Virus record (IMG/VR): IMGVR_UViG_2718218135_000001 | Coordinates: 32,001-96,000 of that record | Source: a virus | Taxonomy: Duplodnaviria; Heunggongvirae; Uroviricota; Caudoviricetes | Reading direction: 5' to 3' (one strand) | DNA length: 64,000 nt | Shown here: one piece after another, positions 1-64,000 of the stretch | Layout: the number at the start of each line of letters is the position of its first letter | Position numbering within the stretch: position 1 is the stretch's first letter | Program-made: the position numbers and the translations under genes | Notes under the pieces: model-generated | The model's database searches: none | Seen by the model: the letters and a program-made list of their open reading frames with translations, nothing else | What the model was told of the DNA's origin: nothing

Positions 1-72
1 AAAAACGACTCGTGATACCACCCAAAAACAGACACGCTCAGAAGCGCTCCCGTTGCGTTATATTGGACATCT

Positions 73-86
73 AAACAAGTTGTTTT
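73..86. promoter_or_regulatory. AAACAA-N2-TTGTTT operator-like palindrome (copy 1)
   Basis: aaacaagttgtttt; same palindrome recurs at least 10 times in the window; here it precedes the A+C-rich non-coding tract. Confidence 0.45.
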
Positions 87-799
87 CAGACACAAGAAAA
101 CAAGCTAACCACACCCACAGGAAACCCAGAGACGCCATTACCCACATTCCCAAAAACAACCAACCTCTTTATGGCAGGCTACTGAAAAGACCCACCTCTT
201 CTTCCCAGGCTACCGGACAACCAACCTAACTTTCACAGGCAACTCGAAACATTCATACATGCGATACCCACTACACGCCATTCCCCAAACAGCGAATAAA
301 CACCAGAACCACTGAAACTCTAACGAAGCCTGTTACCGCAAGGACTCCCTCAATCCCCAAAGACACGAAACAGAACATTCGCGGGGAAACGCCATTACTC
401 AATACACAAATAACCACAAAAGCCTTTCACGCTCTCAAGACAAACAACTCAAATACAATAACGAAAGGAATCGCCCACCTGCCATTACTCCATACACAGA
501 GAAGAACAATCACCAAAACAACGAGAACAACCCTGACGAAAACACAGAGAAGAACCACCTCAAGAAGAACGAAACCACATATGCCGGTAGAAAGAACAAA
601 CCACCCATTTCACCCACAGGAATAGTCGCCGTATTGAGCGTTATCAGAGAGAAGGTTTATGCCCACATAAGAGAGAAAATTCGTGGGAGGTATAAGTGGG
701 AAGGGAAGGAGGGGTATCGCCACTTTCTTCGTATAAATTCAAGCCATAGTTTTCATCCCCCGTAACGTCCCTATCCACCCCTTCGGTCAGCCTTCGGGC

Positions 800-1000
800 C
801 ATCCAGGGAAAAGGCCATGTCCCTTTTCAGAAACGGGAGCGTCGCCGCAGGGAAAAGGCTGGAGGTTTTCAGGGAAACGGTGGGAATCCCGCTATACGAA
901 CCGGGAAAAGGCTGGCTGCCGGTCGGGAAACGGGTACATCCCGGTACAGAGCGAGGGACGACTGCGGGAGCGGTGCGGGAAATCTTCGGGAATGCGCCTT
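800..1000. repeat. iteron-like direct repeats
   Basis: repeated units AGGGAAAAGGC...TTTTCAG(A/G)GAAACGG at about 806, 850, 871, 903, 924, 977; the three overlapping ORFs here translate to low-complexity sequence. Confidence 0.5.
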
Positions 1001-1273
1001 GCTCTTCGCTCGCCTGAAAATCGCGAGGGAGTGTCGTTCCCTCTCGTGCAGCTGCTGAACTCCATTCTGCCAGACCATCCTCGGGTCTCAAGCGATTTCA
1101 GTAGGTTTTCGGGGAGAAGAAAATTCTGCCCACCAGCCCTGCGGCGCGCGTAGAGCAGAATATCGTAAATACTGGTTCCCGTGTCGTTCCCGGATATTCA
1201 CTGCCCAGCCTGGCTTTCACGACATAAAATCCTTTTTCGCCTTTGTCTTATTGCGACAATAACACCAACAAGT

Positions 1274-1287
1274 AAACAACATGTTTA
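1274..1287. promoter_or_regulatory. AAACAA-N2-TTGTTT operator-like palindrome
   Basis: aaacaacatgttta, 32 bp upstream of ATG 1319. Confidence 0.5.
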
Positions 1288-1318
1288 GACGTTATATAAA
1301 CGAAGTGAGGATGAAGAG

Positions 1319-1537
1319 ATGATTAAGATGCCTGTGACGGTTGAGGTGTGGGGCGTGGATTCCCTGGCTGAGTGTCTGGATGCAGTGGGGCCGGAGTTGT
1401 ACCGCAAGTTGTGGTCGTTCGTCCCGGCAGAAGGGGAATCGCCCAAAGGGAAGGATATCTGGCACCTGCTTAGTGAAGATGAAAAGCGGGAGCTGGTGGA
1501 CGCGGTACACAGCGAGTTCCCGGACGACGAAGATTAA
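1319..1537 (+). CDS. hypothetical small acidic protein (72 aa)
   Basis: ORF with GAGGA RBS and upstream operator palindrome. Confidence 0.5.
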   Translation: MIKMPVTVEVWGVDSLAECLDAVGPELYRKLWSFVPAEGESPKGKDIWHLLSEDEKRELVDAVHSEFPDDED

Positions 1538-1650
1538 GAGTGAGACCACCAGCACGGTGGCTTTTGTCGCTATTAACCTCCGGGGCAGCGCAGCACCGTA
1601 ACGATATACTTTGTGGCCGTTTTCTTACTGGTATTGTTTACGCAATTCAG

Positions 1651-1666
1651 AAAACAACATGTTTAA
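1651..1666. promoter_or_regulatory. AAACAA-N2-TTGTTT operator-like palindrome
   Basis: aaaacaacatgtttaa inside a ~60-bp promoter cassette that is duplicated at 2100-2158. Confidence 0.5.
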
Positions 1667-61482: not shown

Positions 61483-61866
61483 CGACTTGATTGCCTCAAC
61501 AACCCGCTCCGACGCACCACGTTGGTCACCGAAACGTCGACGGAAGGCTTCCAGAACTAGTTTTTCATCTTTAGTCAGAGGGGCTGTGCCTTCGTCGCGA
61601 AAAAACTCTAACAGCTCTGGATGACGCTCTTCCAGCACCATTAGCATCAATCGGACCGAATCGGCATCCAATGCTTTAGCCAACGCTCTGACCTTGTCGA
61701 TCGGAAGCGGGATTTTGCCGCTCTTGATAAGTGAAAGATTGTTAGGATTTTTATAGCCTGCTTCTTTCGCGATGGTCGCCTGGCTTTTCGGAGAAATCGC
61801 GATTAAAGCGTCAATGTAAGCAGCGTAGCGACCTACTTTAGCTTCTGTTATTTCGTTGGTAGCCAT
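61477..61866 (-). CDS. HTH (XRE-like) transcriptional regulator
   Basis: 129 aa; convergent with recombinase and overlapping its 3' end by 6 nt. Confidence 0.55.
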   Translation of the reverse strand: MATNEITEAKVGRYAAYIDALIAISPKSQATIAKEAGYKNPNNLSLIKSGKIPLPIDKVRALAKALDADSVRLMLMVLEERHPELLEFFRDEGTAPLTKDEKLVLEAFRRRFGDQRGASERVVEAIKSL

Positions 61867-61897
61867 AATTATCAACCTGCGTGTTTTGATTTTATAT

Positions 61898-61911
61898 GGT
61901 AAGTGCTTACT
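61898..61911. promoter_or_regulatory. TAAGTA-type palindromic box
   Basis: ggtaagtgcttact in the promoter region of the HTH regulator. Confidence 0.4.
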
Positions 61912-62122
61912 GATATTACATCAAAGGTTAGTGTTGTAAAGACTTATCTATTTTTTTTCGTAGAGTTATTGACCGCAAAAGGCTTCATTAATAGACAACT
62001 ATCTAAAAAACAACTCATTTAAGAACTTAAAACTAAGTTGTATTTGATATATAAGTATTCCGTATTGATACAATAGGTAGTAGTATTGCAAGGCATTTAC
62101 GTGTTCAGTTGGATGATATGAA

Positions 62123-62335
62123 ATGAAAAAAATAACTTCTAATTTGATCGCCCTTGAGGTCGGACATACGGTTTCAATTGACGATGATGGGGCAGCAGCC
62201 ATACTCACTGAACTGCCAACAAAGTCTTTGTTACTTGACATGAAAGACGCAACCGCATACATCTTTGAGCTAAAGGGCAAGTGCTTCACTCTCATCAATA
62301 CCGGCTGCGGTTCAGTAGCCGTCCGCACTATTTAA
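62123..62335 (+). CDS. hypothetical small protein (70 aa)
   Basis: ORF in AT-rich region; followed by 12-bp-stem hairpin at 62361-62393. Confidence 0.35.
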   Translation: MKKITSNLIALEVGHTVSIDDDGAAAILTELPTKSLLLDMKDATAYIFELKGKCFTLINTGCGSVAVRTI

Positions 62336-62413
62336 CACACCCCTCCCATCCTCTCTAGCGCCTGTACGAACAGATTAGATGCCTGTTCGTACAGTGATAA
62401 ATTACGCACATCA

Positions 62414-62430
62414 GAAAACAAATTGTTTTA
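62414..62430. promoter_or_regulatory. AAACAA-N2-TTGTTT operator-like palindrome
   Basis: gaaaacaaattgtttta, 18 bp upstream of ATG 62448. Confidence 0.5.
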
Positions 62431-62447
62431 ACAACAAGGAAATTCTA

Positions 62448-64000
62448 ATGTCCAAAAAAACCACCAAAGCTGTACTGAAAGAGGTGCAGGATTTTCGCGA
62501 CTGTGTAAAACGAGTTGTAGCGATGCTTTCAGGTAAACAGATACCTGTTGCAGAACGAGGCAATGAAGCATATGTCCGCTATAACCGGCGCGGCGAACCA
62601 GTGCTGGTAAACATCCCATCTATACCGGACGACGCGTCGCCAACCCTCATGAACGCAGTGCGTGGTTTTCTCGACCATGAGGTGGCCCATATTCTCTTTA
62701 CTGAACCGAAAGTCGCAATGCAGATGCGCGAAAGAGGAAAGGCTCCGTCTACGGGGCTTTGGAATGCGCTGGAAGACGTTTTTATTGAACGCAGAATGGG
62801 GCAGGTCTTTAACGGAACCCGGCGTAATTTACTTGCAACACAGAGTCTGGTTATCGACAAATACTTCAGGAATAAAGTACCAGAAGCGGTTTTAGCCTGT
62901 CACGGAGACCAGCGTGAATTGTTTTTGAAATTCTTCCTTTGCCCGGTCGTCCGCGCCTGGGATGGACAAAGCCCCTTCATCGATTTTATGGAAGAACACT
63001 GGCGCCTTATCGAGAGGCCGGTAGCCTTACTAAAGGAGCATGGTATAGACGTGGCCGTTCGCAATATGTCGAACACTGAGGATTGCGTGAAGGTCGCTGC
63101 TGCTATAGCCCAAATCATGCAGGATATGAAAGACAAGCCAGAGGGCAAATTACCAGAACTTAAATCATCTGCCAGAAAGCCGTCGGAGAGCAAAGACGAG
63201 TCCGAGGAAACGCCAGAATCAGGTGACGAGCCGTCTCATGGTGACTCTGCATCTAAGCCTGCCAAAGGCGAAGGCGATGACAAGGAAGAACGAGAAGATG
63301 ATGCATCAGAAGAGGAAGATTCTGGGGATTCCGATTTGCCTGATTCGTTAGATAAGGACTTACCTACACACGTTAAAGATATTAGTGATACAGAAAGTAA
63401 ATATACAGAAGCAGGCCACGAAGAGTCAGGAGACACCCCAGAATCCGATGCTATCGGCATGAAATCAAGTGACTCTGACACTGATGGTGATGACGGTGAG
63501 GACTCCGATACTGATCGTGGGGAAACTGAAGAAGACGTCGAAGGCAAAAAAAATAAAGATGGTGCGGAAGTGCCCAAAGACAGTGAGTCTGGCTTTGTTC
63601 CTGCGCCGGATGAAATGACTCTGGAGGAGGCGCTAAAGGCGCTCGACGAGATGGAAGACGGAATCGGTGAAATGACCGAAGACGCACTGTCGGCCACCAT
63701 CAGCAAAGAGCTTATGAGCGTCTCACCTTCTGATTATCGGCCATACGATCGATCATACGACTTTATCGGGTTGATTGATGGAGCCGAAGAGCATGTGAAG
63801 CGCACCAGAAAGACGTTCGGTGCAATACCAATGCACTCACCAGTCGACCGCTACCGTATGGTGCCAGAAGGCAGAAAACTCTTTGAACTGAAAATCGAAA
63901 AACATCTGTCTGCAGGCGTTTCTTCGACGCTGGCCAAAGACCTGGAGCGGGCCATCGCCAGCCGCAACCGAGTTCAGTTTATACCTGGTCAGAGGCGTGG
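62448..64000 (+). CDS. large protein with acidic D/E/S-rich linker, 3'-truncated by window end
   Basis: hand-translated open frame from ATG 62448 (AAGGA RBS) to window end, over 510 codons; absent from track because no stop is reached. Confidence 0.6.
   Translation, partial: MSKKTTKAVLKEVQDFRDCVKRVVAMLSGKQIPVAERGNEAYVRYNRRGEPVLVNIPSIPDDASPTLMNAVRGFLDHEVAHILFTEPKVAMQMRERGKAPSTGLWNALEDVFIERRMGQVFNGTRRNLLATQSLVIDKYFRNKVPEAVLACHGDQRELFLKFFLCPVVRAWDGQSPFIDFMEEHWRLIERPVALLKEHGIDVAVRNMSNTEDCVKVAAAIAQIMQDMKDKPEGKLPELKSSARKPSESKDESEETPESGDEPSHGDSASKPAKGEGDDKEEREDDASEEEDSGDSDLPDSLDKDLPTHVKDISDTESKYTEAGHEESGDTPESDAIGMKSSDSDTDGDDGEDSDTDRGETEEDVEGKKNKDGAEVPKDSESGFVPAPDEMTLEEALKALDEMEDGIGEMTEDALSATISKELMSVSPSDYRPYDRSYDFIGLIDGAEEHVKRTRKTFGAIPMHSPVDRYRMVPEGRKLFELKIEKHLSAGVSSTLAKDLERAIASRNRVQFIPGQRR

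Follow-up and report, generated by a model that had tools for sequence, protein, structure and literature searches.

The 64,000-nucleotide stretch of DNA analyzed here (the window) carries on its plus strand, from 13727 to 39195, genes in the order TerS-like DNA-binding protein, TerL, portal, scaffold, major capsid protein, Ig-like decoration protein, tail terminator, tail tube, tape measure, gpM, gpL, gpK, I-like protein, gpJ, Stf and Tfa, and the lambda-like morphogenesis order of the original prediction was thus borne out by Pfam and PHROG matches (Table 1). Nearly all of the genes from 13727 to 23709 encode proteins with 94-100% amino acid identity to SSU5_001-014 of Salmonella phage SSU5, the exception being the Ig-like decoration protein (SSU5_006 homologue), which is partly replaced (56% identity over 43% of its length). 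The tape measure protein of Cyrano is 1,525 aa long (PMC9928086). Stf and Tfa form an exchangeable cassette that also occurs in chromosomal lambdoid prophages (stfR/tfaQ-like), and only 14% of SSU5_021 aligns; an Rfam IS009 match lies inside this cassette at 38957-39155. The lysis genes match phrog_5093, phrog_873 (endolysin) and phrog_1026 (Rz-like spanin), and their products share 65-93% amino acid identity with SSU5_026-029.

Table 1. Features of the window, with the matches on which each assignment is based (aa id., amino acid identity).
Feature	Position	Strand	Basis and remarks
Small early/unknown gene block	1..5200		Homologous to SSU5_109-118, partly replaced; tblastn, 50-93% aa id., collinear
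Regulatory block	5225..8483	-	216-aa protein (SSU5_120 homologue), repressor-like protein, two variable ORFs, 92-aa ORF
Repressor-like protein	6190-6714	-	phrog_1444 'transcriptional repressor', E=1.9e-87
Variable ORFs	6714-7304; 7603-8142	-	phrog_18942; phrog_13473
DEAD/DEAH-box helicase	8486..10045	-	PF00270, PF04851, PF00271; 98.5% aa id. to SSU5_124
Block upstream of packaging genes	10110..13530	+	97-99.5% aa id. to SSU5_125-130 throughout
Two ParB-N-domain proteins	10110-10808; 10808-11476	+	PF02195 twice
ABC-type ATPase	11473-12111	+	PF00005
ORFs of 84, 299 and 88 aa	within 10110..13530	+	299-aa ORF, phrog_886
Large palindrome	13549..13618		24-nt arms, 96% complementary; motif CCTGCTTCCGTATATA
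Packaging, head and proximal tail genes	13727..23709	+	Pfam/PHROG; TerL PF03237, portal phrog_145, scaffold phrog_206, tail terminator PF12691, Ig-domain tail tube protein; includes connector proteins and tail chaperones
Tape measure protein, 1530 aa	23696..28288	+	PF20155, PF09718; 88.6% aa id. to SSU5_015
Lambda-type tail tip genes	28331..35413	+	gpM PF05939; gpL PF05100; gpK JAB and NlpC/P60 (PF14464, PF00877); I-like protein; gpJ (1527 aa) PF24801, PF13550, PF09327
Side tail fibre (1035 aa) and Tfa	35507..39195	+	Stf PF03406, PF07484; Tfa PF02413
Lysis cassette	39317..40745	+	Holin-like protein (SSU5_026 homologue), endolysin, Rz/Rz1-like spanins
Toxin-antitoxin pair 1	40781..41579	-	TacA-type antitoxin (41310-41579), PF08681 E=3.5e-26; GNAT acetyltransferase toxin (40781-41302), PF00583/PF13508
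Partition locus	41899..42923	+	Small ParA-type ATPase (221 aa, 41899-42564), 119-aa partner ORF
GIY-YIG protein, PD-T4-3-like	42976..43743	-	PF22945; resembles a single-gene anti-phage defence
Second CCTGCTTCCGTATATA palindrome copy	43855..43907		Upstream of replication operon
Replication operon	44026..47424	+	241-aa protein, helicase, primase; 95-99% aa id. to SSU5_038-040
DnaB-like helicase	44812-46152	+	PF03796
Primase	46309-47424	+	Weak DnaG_N and Toprim matches
Toxin-antitoxin pair 2	47558..48156	-	Phd antitoxin (47935-48156), PF02604; Doc toxin (47558-47935), PF02661; P1 addiction-module type
Chaperone-usher fimbrial operon	48341..53150	-	Four genes
Adhesin-like subunit	48341-49471	-	PF00419
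Usher	49362-51854	-	PF00577, E=6e-184
PapD-like chaperone	51866-52600	-	PF00345
YehD-like major subunit	52602-53150	-	NF011766 (YehD), E=2e-58
IS3-family transposase remnants	53291..54843		rve, rve_3, HTH_21; flank fimbrial cargo
Ligase region	54938..58694	+	ORFs of 270 and 158 aa, ligase, small ORFs; SSU5_042-048 homologues, 82-98% aa id.
ATP-dependent DNA ligase	56343-57665	+	PF01068
tRNA-Asn (GTT)	59235..59309	+	ARAGORN; Rfam RF00005, 76 bits; annotated in SSU5 and relative
Recombinase module, 2967 bp	59352..62318		Absent from SSU5, breakpoints by blastn; 171-aa ORF, lox-like site, integrase, HTH regulator (61477-61875, -), 70-aa ORF
Lox-like core site AAATGATTCCATAC-TTGTAAG-GTATGGAATCATTT	60247..60281		Perfect 14-nt inverted repeat, 7-nt spacer
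LexA-box-like TACTGTTTATAAATACAGT	60331..60349		30 nt upstream of int start codon
Tyrosine recombinase, 367 aa	60379..61482	+	PF00589, 36 bits; phrog_1 'integrase', E=7.5e-46
CobT-related protein (annotated 'porphyrin biosynthesis')	62448..64000	+	phrog_1576, E=3e-193; truncated by window end

The maintenance genes that had been predicted, namely a parA-like partition locus, two toxin-antitoxin systems and the element's own helicase, primase and ligase, were all found. The ParA-type ATPase matches PF13614, PF09140, PF01656 and, at 118 bits and under the equivalog cut-off, NF041546 ('ParA family partition ATPase'); the locus matches phrog_164 and phrog_5111, both of its proteins share 98% amino acid identity with SSU5_033/034 (the SSU5_034 homologue aligning to 42633-42920), and no centromere for it was identified in the window. 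The Phd and Doc proteins are 95% and 91% identical, respectively, to the sequences that we take to be those of P1 Phd and Doc, and in a near-identical relative a pdcA remnant is annotated beside this pair. SSU5 lacks the TacA/GNAT pair; Cyrano has a KacT-type pair (PMC9928086). At the end of the window the CobT-related protein shares 82% amino acid identity with SSU5_049 over 71% of the latter, and in the early region tblastn against SSU5 found no homologue for the ORFs at 1611-2006 and 3071-3487, nor did comparison with SSU5 give one for the two variable ORFs of the regulatory block.

Two pieces of accessory cargo are carried: the fimbrial operon, together with its IS remnants, and the PD-T4-3-like gene. 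In E. coli the operon was located at 83 places on chromosomes and 39 on plasmids, across 114 genomes, and RefSeq annotates both IS3-family remnants of the near-identical relative as pseudogenes, frameshifted or incomplete. The alignment of the GIY-YIG protein with PADLOC profile PDLC04031 (PD-T4-3; E=1.3e-23) takes in positions 11-238 of the profile's 256, and the gene for this protein sits in a variable slot that in SSU5 is occupied by SSU5_035-037. The claim that no host housekeeping genes are visible holds only in a loose sense; a fimbrial operon, IS3-family remnants and one tRNA-Asn are also aboard.

The original prediction had also named a resolvase-like recombinase with a lox-like site; recombinase and site are both there, but the enzyme belongs to the tyrosine integrase family (PF00589) and is not a serine resolvase. 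Its candidate catalytic residues were picked by eye, and a sequence search gave no PDB relative at E<=0.01. The module that contains it has CCGTCCG at each junction and occupies the same position in pHCM2, pMT1 and E. coli and Klebsiella relatives. The lox-like palindrome (14-7-14) lies 98 bp upstream of the recombinase gene, and across 12 loci with recombinases 58-92% identical to one another the 12-nt arms never change and the spacer varies; the window holds four copies of the arm, where chance alone predicts 0.27. Apart from the LexA-box-like sequence, the window contains no CTGT-N8-ACAG, and such a box stands 53-55 nt from the lox-like site in six of the seven SSU5-type loci fetched; it was not found in Buttiauxella L018, nor in Chimaeribacter plasmids. 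Recombinase and site occur together in 826 plasmids of Klebsiella, Escherichia, Enterobacter, Yersinia, Salmonella and others, homology beginning at the palindrome in most among the matches listed, and the pair is also carried by a 250-kb non-phage Chimaeribacter plasmid. The exact site pattern was present in only 7 species-representative genomes, on contigs all <= 169 kb, with the recombinase gene adjacent each time, so that no attB-like orphan copies were seen among them.

The guess that the element is a phage-plasmid like SSU5 or pHCM2 proved correct. The span of SSU5 that matches holds 71 CDSs, and tblastn gave collinear homologues for 52 of them (median 95.7% amino acid identity). The structural module shares 89.6% DNA identity with SSU5, and the whole window is collinear, at 98-99.6% identity, with completely sequenced circular plasmids of E. 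coli that are IncFIB-typed and non-mobilizable and measure 106-115 kb, such as pCUVET18-789.1 or NZ_CP115313.1 (113,740 bp). In the near-identical relative and the nearest replicons of this size, RepA, a DnaE-like polymerase, a RecA-like protein, nucleotide-metabolism genes and further replication genes lie beyond the span of the window, and neither a replication initiator nor replicon ends were found within the 64 kb; the window is a partial slice and not a whole genome. We are highly confident that the window represents about 58% of an SSU5-supergroup phage-plasmid of E. coli or a close relative, with a backbone nearest the SSU5_pHCM2 type, its circularity and extrachromosomal state being read from the relatives. 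Phage-plasmids of the SSU5 type are already a well-described family, and the window is an ordinary example; the supergroup as defined has a shell genome with PapC/PapD and toxin-antitoxin systems, and its persistent genes include tyrosine recombinases (PMC7969092).

Were the window instead an integrated chromosomal lambdoid prophage, its maintenance genes would be morons and its integrase would serve chromosomal integration, a reading in keeping with the lambda order of the tail genes, with the proximity of a tyrosine integrase gene to a tRNA gene (some 1 kb apart) and with the thousands of chromosomal prophages that match the Stf/Tfa cassette. However, among 5426 complete E. coli genomes positions 1-25000 were found at 290 places in 252 genomes, every one a plasmid, and the recombinase module at 280 places in 253 genomes, again plasmids only, with no chromosomal match to the former and no integrated copy of the latter. 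Within 25001-39200, matches to E. coli chromosomes are limited to position 36608 onward, that is, the C-terminal part of Stf plus Tfa, and only this exchangeable cassette also matches chromosomal prophages; gpM through gpJ and the queried part of the tape measure gene (from 25001) match plasmids only, and the 5' remainder of that gene, within 1-25000, is likewise plasmid-only. Neither chromosomal integration nor tape measure and J-like proteins matching an integrative lambdoid prophage, the two outcomes named beforehand as contrary evidence, was encountered, and in the 7 species-representative genomes that have it the exact site pattern lies beside a recombinase gene. A chromosomal origin is effectively refuted, and we give it virtually no weight. 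That the window belongs to a larger plasmid, a cointegrate or hybrid made by fusion of an SSU5-like element with a conventional plasmid, we regard as very unlikely. Several of the records with close matches are 133-324 kb long (e.g. NZ_CP100967.1, 323,994 bp; NZ_CP110979.1, 188,533 bp; NZ_CP040928.1, 163,111 bp), some close relatives are parts of 160-324 kb plasmids, and tyPPing finds many over-long SSU5-type elements with extra plasmid DNA (PMC12977533), but replicons of 106-115 kb account for most of the full-length matches, and the look of a foreign plasmid backbone is confined in the window to the fimbrial/IS island.

It is also unlikely that the element is a defective phage-derived plasmid, past forming infectious virions and holding phage remnants rather than a working phage-plasmid. 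Nearly all of the SSU5 packaging, head, tail and lysis homologues in the window have 98-100% length coverage without internal stops (the exceptions are the decoration protein, at 43%, and one Rz-like spanin ORF, at 82%), and related SSU5_pHCM2-type elements and Cyrano make virions (PMC12977533, PMC9928086). On the other side, relatives are disrupted, the nearest, pCUVET18-789.1, having its J gene interrupted by IS1203, whereas J is intact in the window; at least one SSU5-like Klebsiella plasmid is reported not to act as an intact or inducible prophage (PMC8969562); and about 42% of the replicon lies beyond view. More open to argument is the tyrosine recombinase, which might be a true integrase, or an enzyme of cyclisation or lifecycle switching after infection or SOS induction, and not a dimer resolvase. 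Its family matches are phage integrases (phrog_1; a PRK09692-like domain), a conserved LexA-like box precedes the gene in most SSU5-type loci and is missing from the non-phage Chimaeribacter plasmids, and relative to SSU5 the module lies about 40 bp past the tRNA-Asn gene. Nevertheless, the simplicity and symmetry of the site, a 12-7-12 core immediately ahead of the gene, the lack of integrated copies in the E. coli genomes and of orphan partner sites in the species-representative genomes, the presence of the pair on a non-phage plasmid, and the lytic growth of SSU5 without the module make such a role doubtful, and dimer resolution at the 12-7-12 site is the most probable function.

Beside what was observed (the genes and their order, their homologies, a distribution limited to plasmids and a conserved recombinase site), we infer a set of activities (replication, partition, dimer resolution, induction and infectivity) that would combine as follows. 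In lysogeny the phage-plasmid would be a low-copy circular plasmid, its replication started by an IncFIB-type RepA encoded beyond the window and aided by its own DnaB-like helicase, primase and ligase; the small ParA-type ATPase and its small partner protein would segregate it, the TacA/GNAT and P1-type Phd/Doc addiction modules would stabilize it, and the tyrosine recombinase would most probably resolve plasmid dimers at the 12-7-12 site a short way ahead of the gene that encodes it. Once induced (in the relative Cyrano, induction is SOS-linked), the element would use its lambda-order module to build a siphovirus with a tape measure of about 1530 aa, the lysis cassette would release it, and the E. 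coli-type Stf/Tfa cassette may set part of its host range. Cyrano (pLF82) is kept at 5.5 copies per cell and is induced by ciprofloxacin to give siphovirus virions (PMC9928086).

A small lead remains in the region ahead of the recombinase gene, where members of the SSU5 supergroup carry a 12-7-12 site with invariant arms and, in most of the loci fetched, a LexA-like box. The linear records of SSU5 and Cyrano are opened in the loop of the large palindrome at 13549..13618, both beginning at about position 13594 of the window, and the SSU5 record has one palindrome arm at either end.

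A megablast search with window positions 10000-34000, which fall in the structural module (the phage array), returned 12 phage records, all SSU5-type: Salmonella phage SSU5 at 89.6% DNA identity, the Escherichia phages Cyrano, CMS-2020a and PhiR41_1 at ~85-86%, and Klebsiella relatives at ~80%. Among plasmid records, 813 were hit by this stretch, most of them non-mobilizable and from Klebsiella, Escherichia, Enterobacter, Yersinia and Salmonella; the best of these were complete circular E. coli plasmids with 97-98.7% identity, and the remaining stretches of the window gave the same pattern of matches. 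By direct alignment, the near-identical E. coli plasmid pCUVET18-789.1 (NZ_CP115313.1; 113,740 bp, circular, IncFIB, non-mobilizable) is collinear with the window over record positions ~23,863-90,180, and the rest of this plasmid encodes repA, a DnaE-like polymerase, exonucleases, thymidylate synthase, dfrA51 and methyltransferases.

The original prediction had taken the window for a siphovirus genome with plasmid-maintenance modules, of a family guessed to be SSU5/pHCM2-like. Given that repA, the polymerase and other such genes sit in the remainder of pCUVET18-789.1, the window is ~58% of a replicon and no whole genome, and in this respect the prediction has to be corrected. The closest relatives measure 106-115 kb, and both ends of the 64-kb window lie inside the element. 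The phage functions that it encodes comprise TerL, portal, scaffold, major capsid protein, tape measure protein, gpM, gpL, gpK, gpJ, tail fibre, endolysin and spanin. Its plasmid function is a ParA-type ATPase with a partner; RepA is not encoded within it, and the IncFIB-typed relatives carry repA outside the span it covers. The gene repertoire is that of the SSU5 supergroup as well as the SSU5_pHCM2 type, for which tyPPing sets a minimum of 71 of 90 signature profiles, together with composition, and the replicon size is 94-126 kb (PMC12977533, Table 1). With the phage-plasmid definition of Pfeifer et al. 2021 (PMC7969092), the interpretation of the window as part of an SSU5-type phage-plasmid is supported, with minor corrections.

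The predicted lambda-like morphogenesis order was borne out, running from TerS-like protein, TerL, portal, scaffold, major capsid protein, decoration protein, connectors, tail terminator, tail tube and chaperones into the siphovirus-type tail genes: tape measure (1530 aa, against ~1,525 aa for the type), gpM, gpL, gpK (JAB plus NlpC/P60), an I-like protein, gpJ, Stf and Tfa. These are followed by a holin-like protein, endolysin and spanins. The ParA-like locus, comprising a 221-aa ParA-type ATPase and a 119-aa partner, was likewise confirmed, as were two toxin-antitoxin (TA) systems, TacA/GNAT and Phd/Doc, and a helicase, a primase and a ligase; Pfam support for the primase is weak, but it is 95% identical to that of SSU5.

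For a comparison gene by gene, 71 annotated SSU5 CDSs (SSU5_108-130 plus SSU5_001-049, across the ends of the linear record) were translated and searched against the window. Collinear homologues at a coverage of at least 50% were found for 52 of the 71, with a median amino acid identity of 95.7%, and gene order agrees across the whole window, continuing through the SSU5 record ends; together with the collinear circular plasmids, this confirms the guess at the family. ParA, DnaB, primase, ligase, tRNA-Asn and a CobT-like gene are common to both elements. The absent SSU5 genes correspond to slots filled by five items of window-specific content (Table). SSU5, which is described as virulent (PMC5427195), has neither of the TA pairs, nor the fimbrial/IS island, the recombinase module or the PD-T4-3-like gene, and its tail fibre, with cor-type genes (SSU5_021-025), is a different one. 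Both the phage-plasmid nature of the element and its family had thus been correctly recognised from raw sequence without tools.

Table. Positions of the features discussed (window coordinates unless another record is named)
Feature	Position	Strand	Remark
ParB-N-domain proteins (two) and ABC-type ATPase	10110-12111		directly upstream of packaging genes
CCTGCTTCCGTATATA palindrome	13549-13618		upstream of packaging operon
CCTGCTTCCGTATATA palindrome	43855-43907		upstream of DnaB/primase replication operon
CCTGCTTCCGTATATA half-copy	63400-63415		
CCTGCTTCCGTATATA palindrome, SSU5	~78.3 kb		
CCTGCTTCCGTATATA palindrome, pCUVET18-789.1	~100.3 kb		
E. coli-type Stf/Tfa cassette			window-specific relative to SSU5
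Tail fibre C-terminal part	37021-37928		divergent from pCUVET18-789.1
Rfam IS009 match	38957-39155		inside tail-fibre assembly gene
TacA/GNAT toxin-antitoxin pair	40781-41579		window-specific relative to SSU5
tRNA-Lys call (ARAGORN)	41887-41967	-	81 nt; overlaps parA start
Perfect palindrome	42927-42961		between convergent genes
GIY-YIG protein, PD-T4-3 model match	42976-43743	-	window-specific relative to SSU5
Island of ~7.5 kb: P1-type Phd/Doc, YehD-type fimbrial operon, decayed IS3-family transposase genes	47425-54937		window-specific
Extra 12-nt arm copies	58037-58048, 59057-59068		one where a small ORF (SSU5_047 homologue) starts, one where a 5-codon mini-ORF starts shortly before tRNA-Asn
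Inverted repeat	58718-58802		intergenic, upstream of tRNA-Asn
CCGTCCG at module junctions	59343-59349, 62321-62327		7 bp
Recombinase module	59352-62318		2967 bp; window-specific relative to SSU5
Lox-like site	60247-60281		14-nt inverted repeat, 7-nt spacer
LexA-like box, TACTGTTTATAAATACAGT	60331-60349		between lox-like site and recombinase start codon
Tyrosine recombinase (int)	60379-61482	+	

Among the sets of related phage-plasmids that have been described, the SSU5 supercommunity (SSU5_pHCM2, pKpn, pSLy3, pMT1, pCAV) is the largest; the phage array and recombination genes including tyrosine recombinases make up its persistent genome, and TA systems and PapC/PapD pilus assembly proteins are among the genes reported for its shell genome (PMC7969092). 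The closest known relatives of the window are pCUVET18-789.1 and ~30 other plasmids of E. coli and E. fergusonii (at least 95% identity), which are collinear with it at 98-99.6% and in which its fimbrial operon, its two TA pairs and its recombinase module are present too. Since near-identical plasmids have been deposited and the supergroup, TA and PapC/PapD cargo included, has been described, the element is already known and by itself adds nothing new. The window differs from pCUVET18-789.1 in having neither the IS1203 insertion in J nor the macro-domain gene, in the C-terminal part of the tail fibre, and in the first 2 kb of J, which are only 91.9% identical. The top-matching plasmid record shifts from segment to segment of the window, which indicates recombination within this plasmid lineage.

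The architecture is the same in Cyrano (pLF82, OV696614), which has an int gene and a KacT-type TA pair, and in the SSU5-like lineage that is commoner in E. coli, but identity to the window is only ~85-86% for the DNA of the structural module and, in that lineage, ~79% for the recombinase gene. Cyrano is maintained at 5.5 copies per cell, is inducible with ciprofloxacin and forms siphovirus virions (PMC9928086), and virion production is known for SSU5_pHCM2-type elements (PMC12977533). In Y. pestis pMT1/pFra and S. Typhi pHCM2, whose hosts differ from that of the window, the recombinase and its site are followed by the HTH regulator, the 70-aa ORF and the CobT-like gene, as in the window. The cargo of pMT1 also includes a chaperone-usher operon (caf1), which lies directly upstream of the recombinase, whereas that of the window lies next to the primase gene; the plasmid gene set of the pMT1 group is distinct (PMC7969092).

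Chromosomal integration, or tape measure and J-like proteins matching an integrative lambdoid prophage, would speak against a phage-plasmid. Window positions 1-25000 matched 290 places in complete E. coli genomes, all on plasmids and none chromosomal. With positions 25001-39200 chromosomal matches did appear, but among the matches listed every one of these starts at query position 11608 or later, that is, from window position 36608 onward, where the side tail fibre C-terminal part and Tfa are encoded, and the tape measure gene and gpM to gpJ have plasmid matches only. The Stf C-terminus/Tfa cassette is exchanged among lambdoid phages. The backbone is thus without chromosomal matches, only the Stf C-terminus and Tfa match chromosomes, and the reading as a phage-plasmid stands. 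The plasmid-only matches support an extrachromosomal state for the lineage, which as a statement about relatives is no proof for this particular molecule. Inside the tail-fibre assembly gene there is a 189.6-bit match to the Rfam sRNA family IS009, which fits a Stf/Tfa cassette shared with chromosomal lambdoid prophages.

One feature that sets the window apart from SSU5 and recurs across the supergroup is the recombinase module. While the original prediction of a recombinase with a lox-like site was right as to the presence of both, the enzyme is not resolvase-like in the sense of a serine resolvase; it is a tyrosine recombinase (PF00589, phrog_1), matching the PF00589 catalytic domain with 36 bits against a cut-off of 27, and candidates for the catalytic residues R, K, R, H and Y could be read by eye from the translation. 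The lox-like site, a perfect 14-7-14 palindrome 98 bp upstream of the recombinase start codon, has the layout of a recombinase core site, with inverted arms and an asymmetric spacer within the range of 6-8 bp. The 12-nt arms ATGATTCCATAC and GTATGGAATCAT were unchanged, and the spacer and flanks variable, in an alignment that took in pHCM2, pMT1, one divergent E. coli and one Klebsiella plasmid, and a non-phage plasmid of 250 kb from Chimaeribacter; across 12 loci the arms are invariant and the spacer occurs in five variants.

By distant blastn the recombinase region is present in 826 plasmids spread over the SSU5 supergroup, and in most of the matches listed homology starts within a few bases of the left edge of the palindrome. 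Among 5426 complete E. coli genomes the module occupies 280 places, all on plasmids and none chromosomal. The exact arm pattern was looked for in species-representative genomes and turned up on seven contigs, each of at most 169 kb, and in all seven a recombinase homologue with 58-92% identity starts 46-100 bp from the site; the same exact-arm scan found no orphan attB-like copies of the site. On a Buttiauxella gaviniae contig (2115-2145) the 7-bp spacer has the opposite orientation with respect to the recombinase gene, CTATTAA pointing away from int, and CTGT-N8-ACAG is missing, unlike at all other SSU5-type loci examined.

Given that the arms are conserved and the spacer is free, that the gene is linked to the site, that the pair also occurs on an ordinary plasmid and that integrated copies were not found in the complete E. 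coli genomes, we favour a putative role in multimer resolution akin to that of Cre/lox. P1 Cre/loxP and ResD/rfsF of the F plasmid likewise pair a site with a tyrosine recombinase on a plasmid or phage-plasmid. The layout of loxP is 13-8-13; the window site has inverted arms of 12-14 bp and an asymmetric spacer of 7 bp rather than 8. The likeness would be one of working and not of family membership, since a phmmer comparison of the protein with every PDB chain returned no match at E ≤ 0.01, whether to Cre or to any other solved recombinase. Two extra copies of the 12-nt arm, both of which extend to ATGATTCCATACATC and lie at ORF starts, were considered as accessory sites and rejected, one of them being present also in SSU5, which is without the recombinase.

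Two histories could account for the difference from SSU5 at this locus, namely insertion of the module into the window or its deletion from SSU5. A search for att-type repeats around the module found only the 7-bp CCGTCCG, which is present at both module junctions relative to SSU5 and fits a microhomology-mediated deletion in SSU5. As pHCM2, pMT1 and the E. coli and Klebsiella relatives all carry the module at this locus, SSU5 has probably lost it by deletion, and insertion into the window fits this distribution less well.

Unlike Cre/loxP and ResD/rfsF, the window recombinase is preceded by a LexA-like box, 30 nt upstream of its start codon. The pattern CTGT-N8-ACAG occurs once in the 64-kb window against 0.71 expected by chance, which by count alone is not significant, so the weight of the box comes solely from its position and conservation. 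Of seven SSU5-type loci compared, six have it at 53-55 nt from the site, including those of pHCM2, pMT1, E. coli, Klebsiella and Kluyvera; it was not found at the Buttiauxella locus or on the non-phage Chimaeribacter plasmids. This retention at a fixed distance in SSU5-type loci, and the lack of the box on non-phage plasmids, suggest that the recombinase may be under SOS control. It is conceivable, if rather unlikely in our judgement, that recombinase, invariant 12-7-12 site and LexA-like box make up an uncharacterised SOS-coupled Cre/lox-like module across the whole supergroup, pMT1 and pHCM2 included, which would go beyond housekeeping dimer resolution, for example in multimer processing or as a replicon-topology switch at induction, and that the two full CCTGCTTCCGTATATA palindromes of the window would be the element's own operators or packaging signals. 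The recombinase site and the LexA-like box offer a testable handle on the stabilisation or induction of pHCM2- and pMT1-type replicons.

The TA pairs and the fimbrial operon belong to the cargo that SSU5 lacks. Phd/Doc is of P1 type, with matches to PF02604 and PF02661, the antitoxin gene first and the genes abutting at 47935. Phd and Doc are 95% and 91% identical, respectively, to what we take to be the P1 proteins; this identity, and a pdcA remnant annotated beside phd/doc in pCUVET18-789.1, point to a probable acquisition from a P1-type phage-plasmid. The second pair is of the TacA/TacT type (DUF1778/GNAT), with matches to PF08681 and GNAT families in adjacent genes, and RefSeq names the same pair in pCUVET18-789.1. 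The fimbrial operon encodes a major subunit (NF011766, YehD), a PapD-like chaperone (PF00345), an usher (PF00577 with PF13954 and PF13953) and a tip/adhesin subunit (PF00419); of 5426 E. coli genomes, 114 have it, in 83 places on chromosomes and 39 on plasmids. Its chromosomal occurrences argue that it moves between chromosomes and phage-plasmids, and, with two decayed transposase genes flanking it in the window, fit a putative IS-mediated capture of a chromosomal accessory operon. For the 255-aa GIY-YIG protein there is a nearly full-length match (E=1.3e-23) to the model of PD-T4-3, an anti-phage defence made up of a single gene; the gene for the protein lies in a variable slot beside the par locus, where SSU5 has three unrelated ORFs. 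The lineage is thus a phage-plasmid with adhesin (fimbrial), addiction and anti-phage cargo that is also on E. coli chromosomes, and illustrates gene flow through phage-plasmids.

A search for a partition centromere around parA gave no convincing repeat array; the perfect palindrome between convergent genes nearby may be a terminator. The tRNA-Lys called by ARAGORN at the start of parA appears neither in the Rfam search nor in the annotation of pCUVET18-789.1, and was rejected as a probable false positive. Far from the ParA locus, the two ParB-N-domain proteins and the ABC-type ATPase are annotated as partition proteins in SSU5 and have weak PADLOC matches to the MTase_II and mad3/mad8 models; the position of their genes suggests a packaging or regulatory role. 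The inverted repeat upstream of tRNA-Asn has 23-nt arms, 91% complementary, and a 39-nt loop, and is without a match in Rfam. Finally, a family of palindromes of 60-90 bp is built on CCTGCTTCCGTATATA, which is matched five times in the window where 0.37 would be expected by chance. Both linear records, that of SSU5 and that of Cyrano, are cut in the loop of the first of these palindromes, and the family could represent operators, promoters or a cos/pac packaging site.
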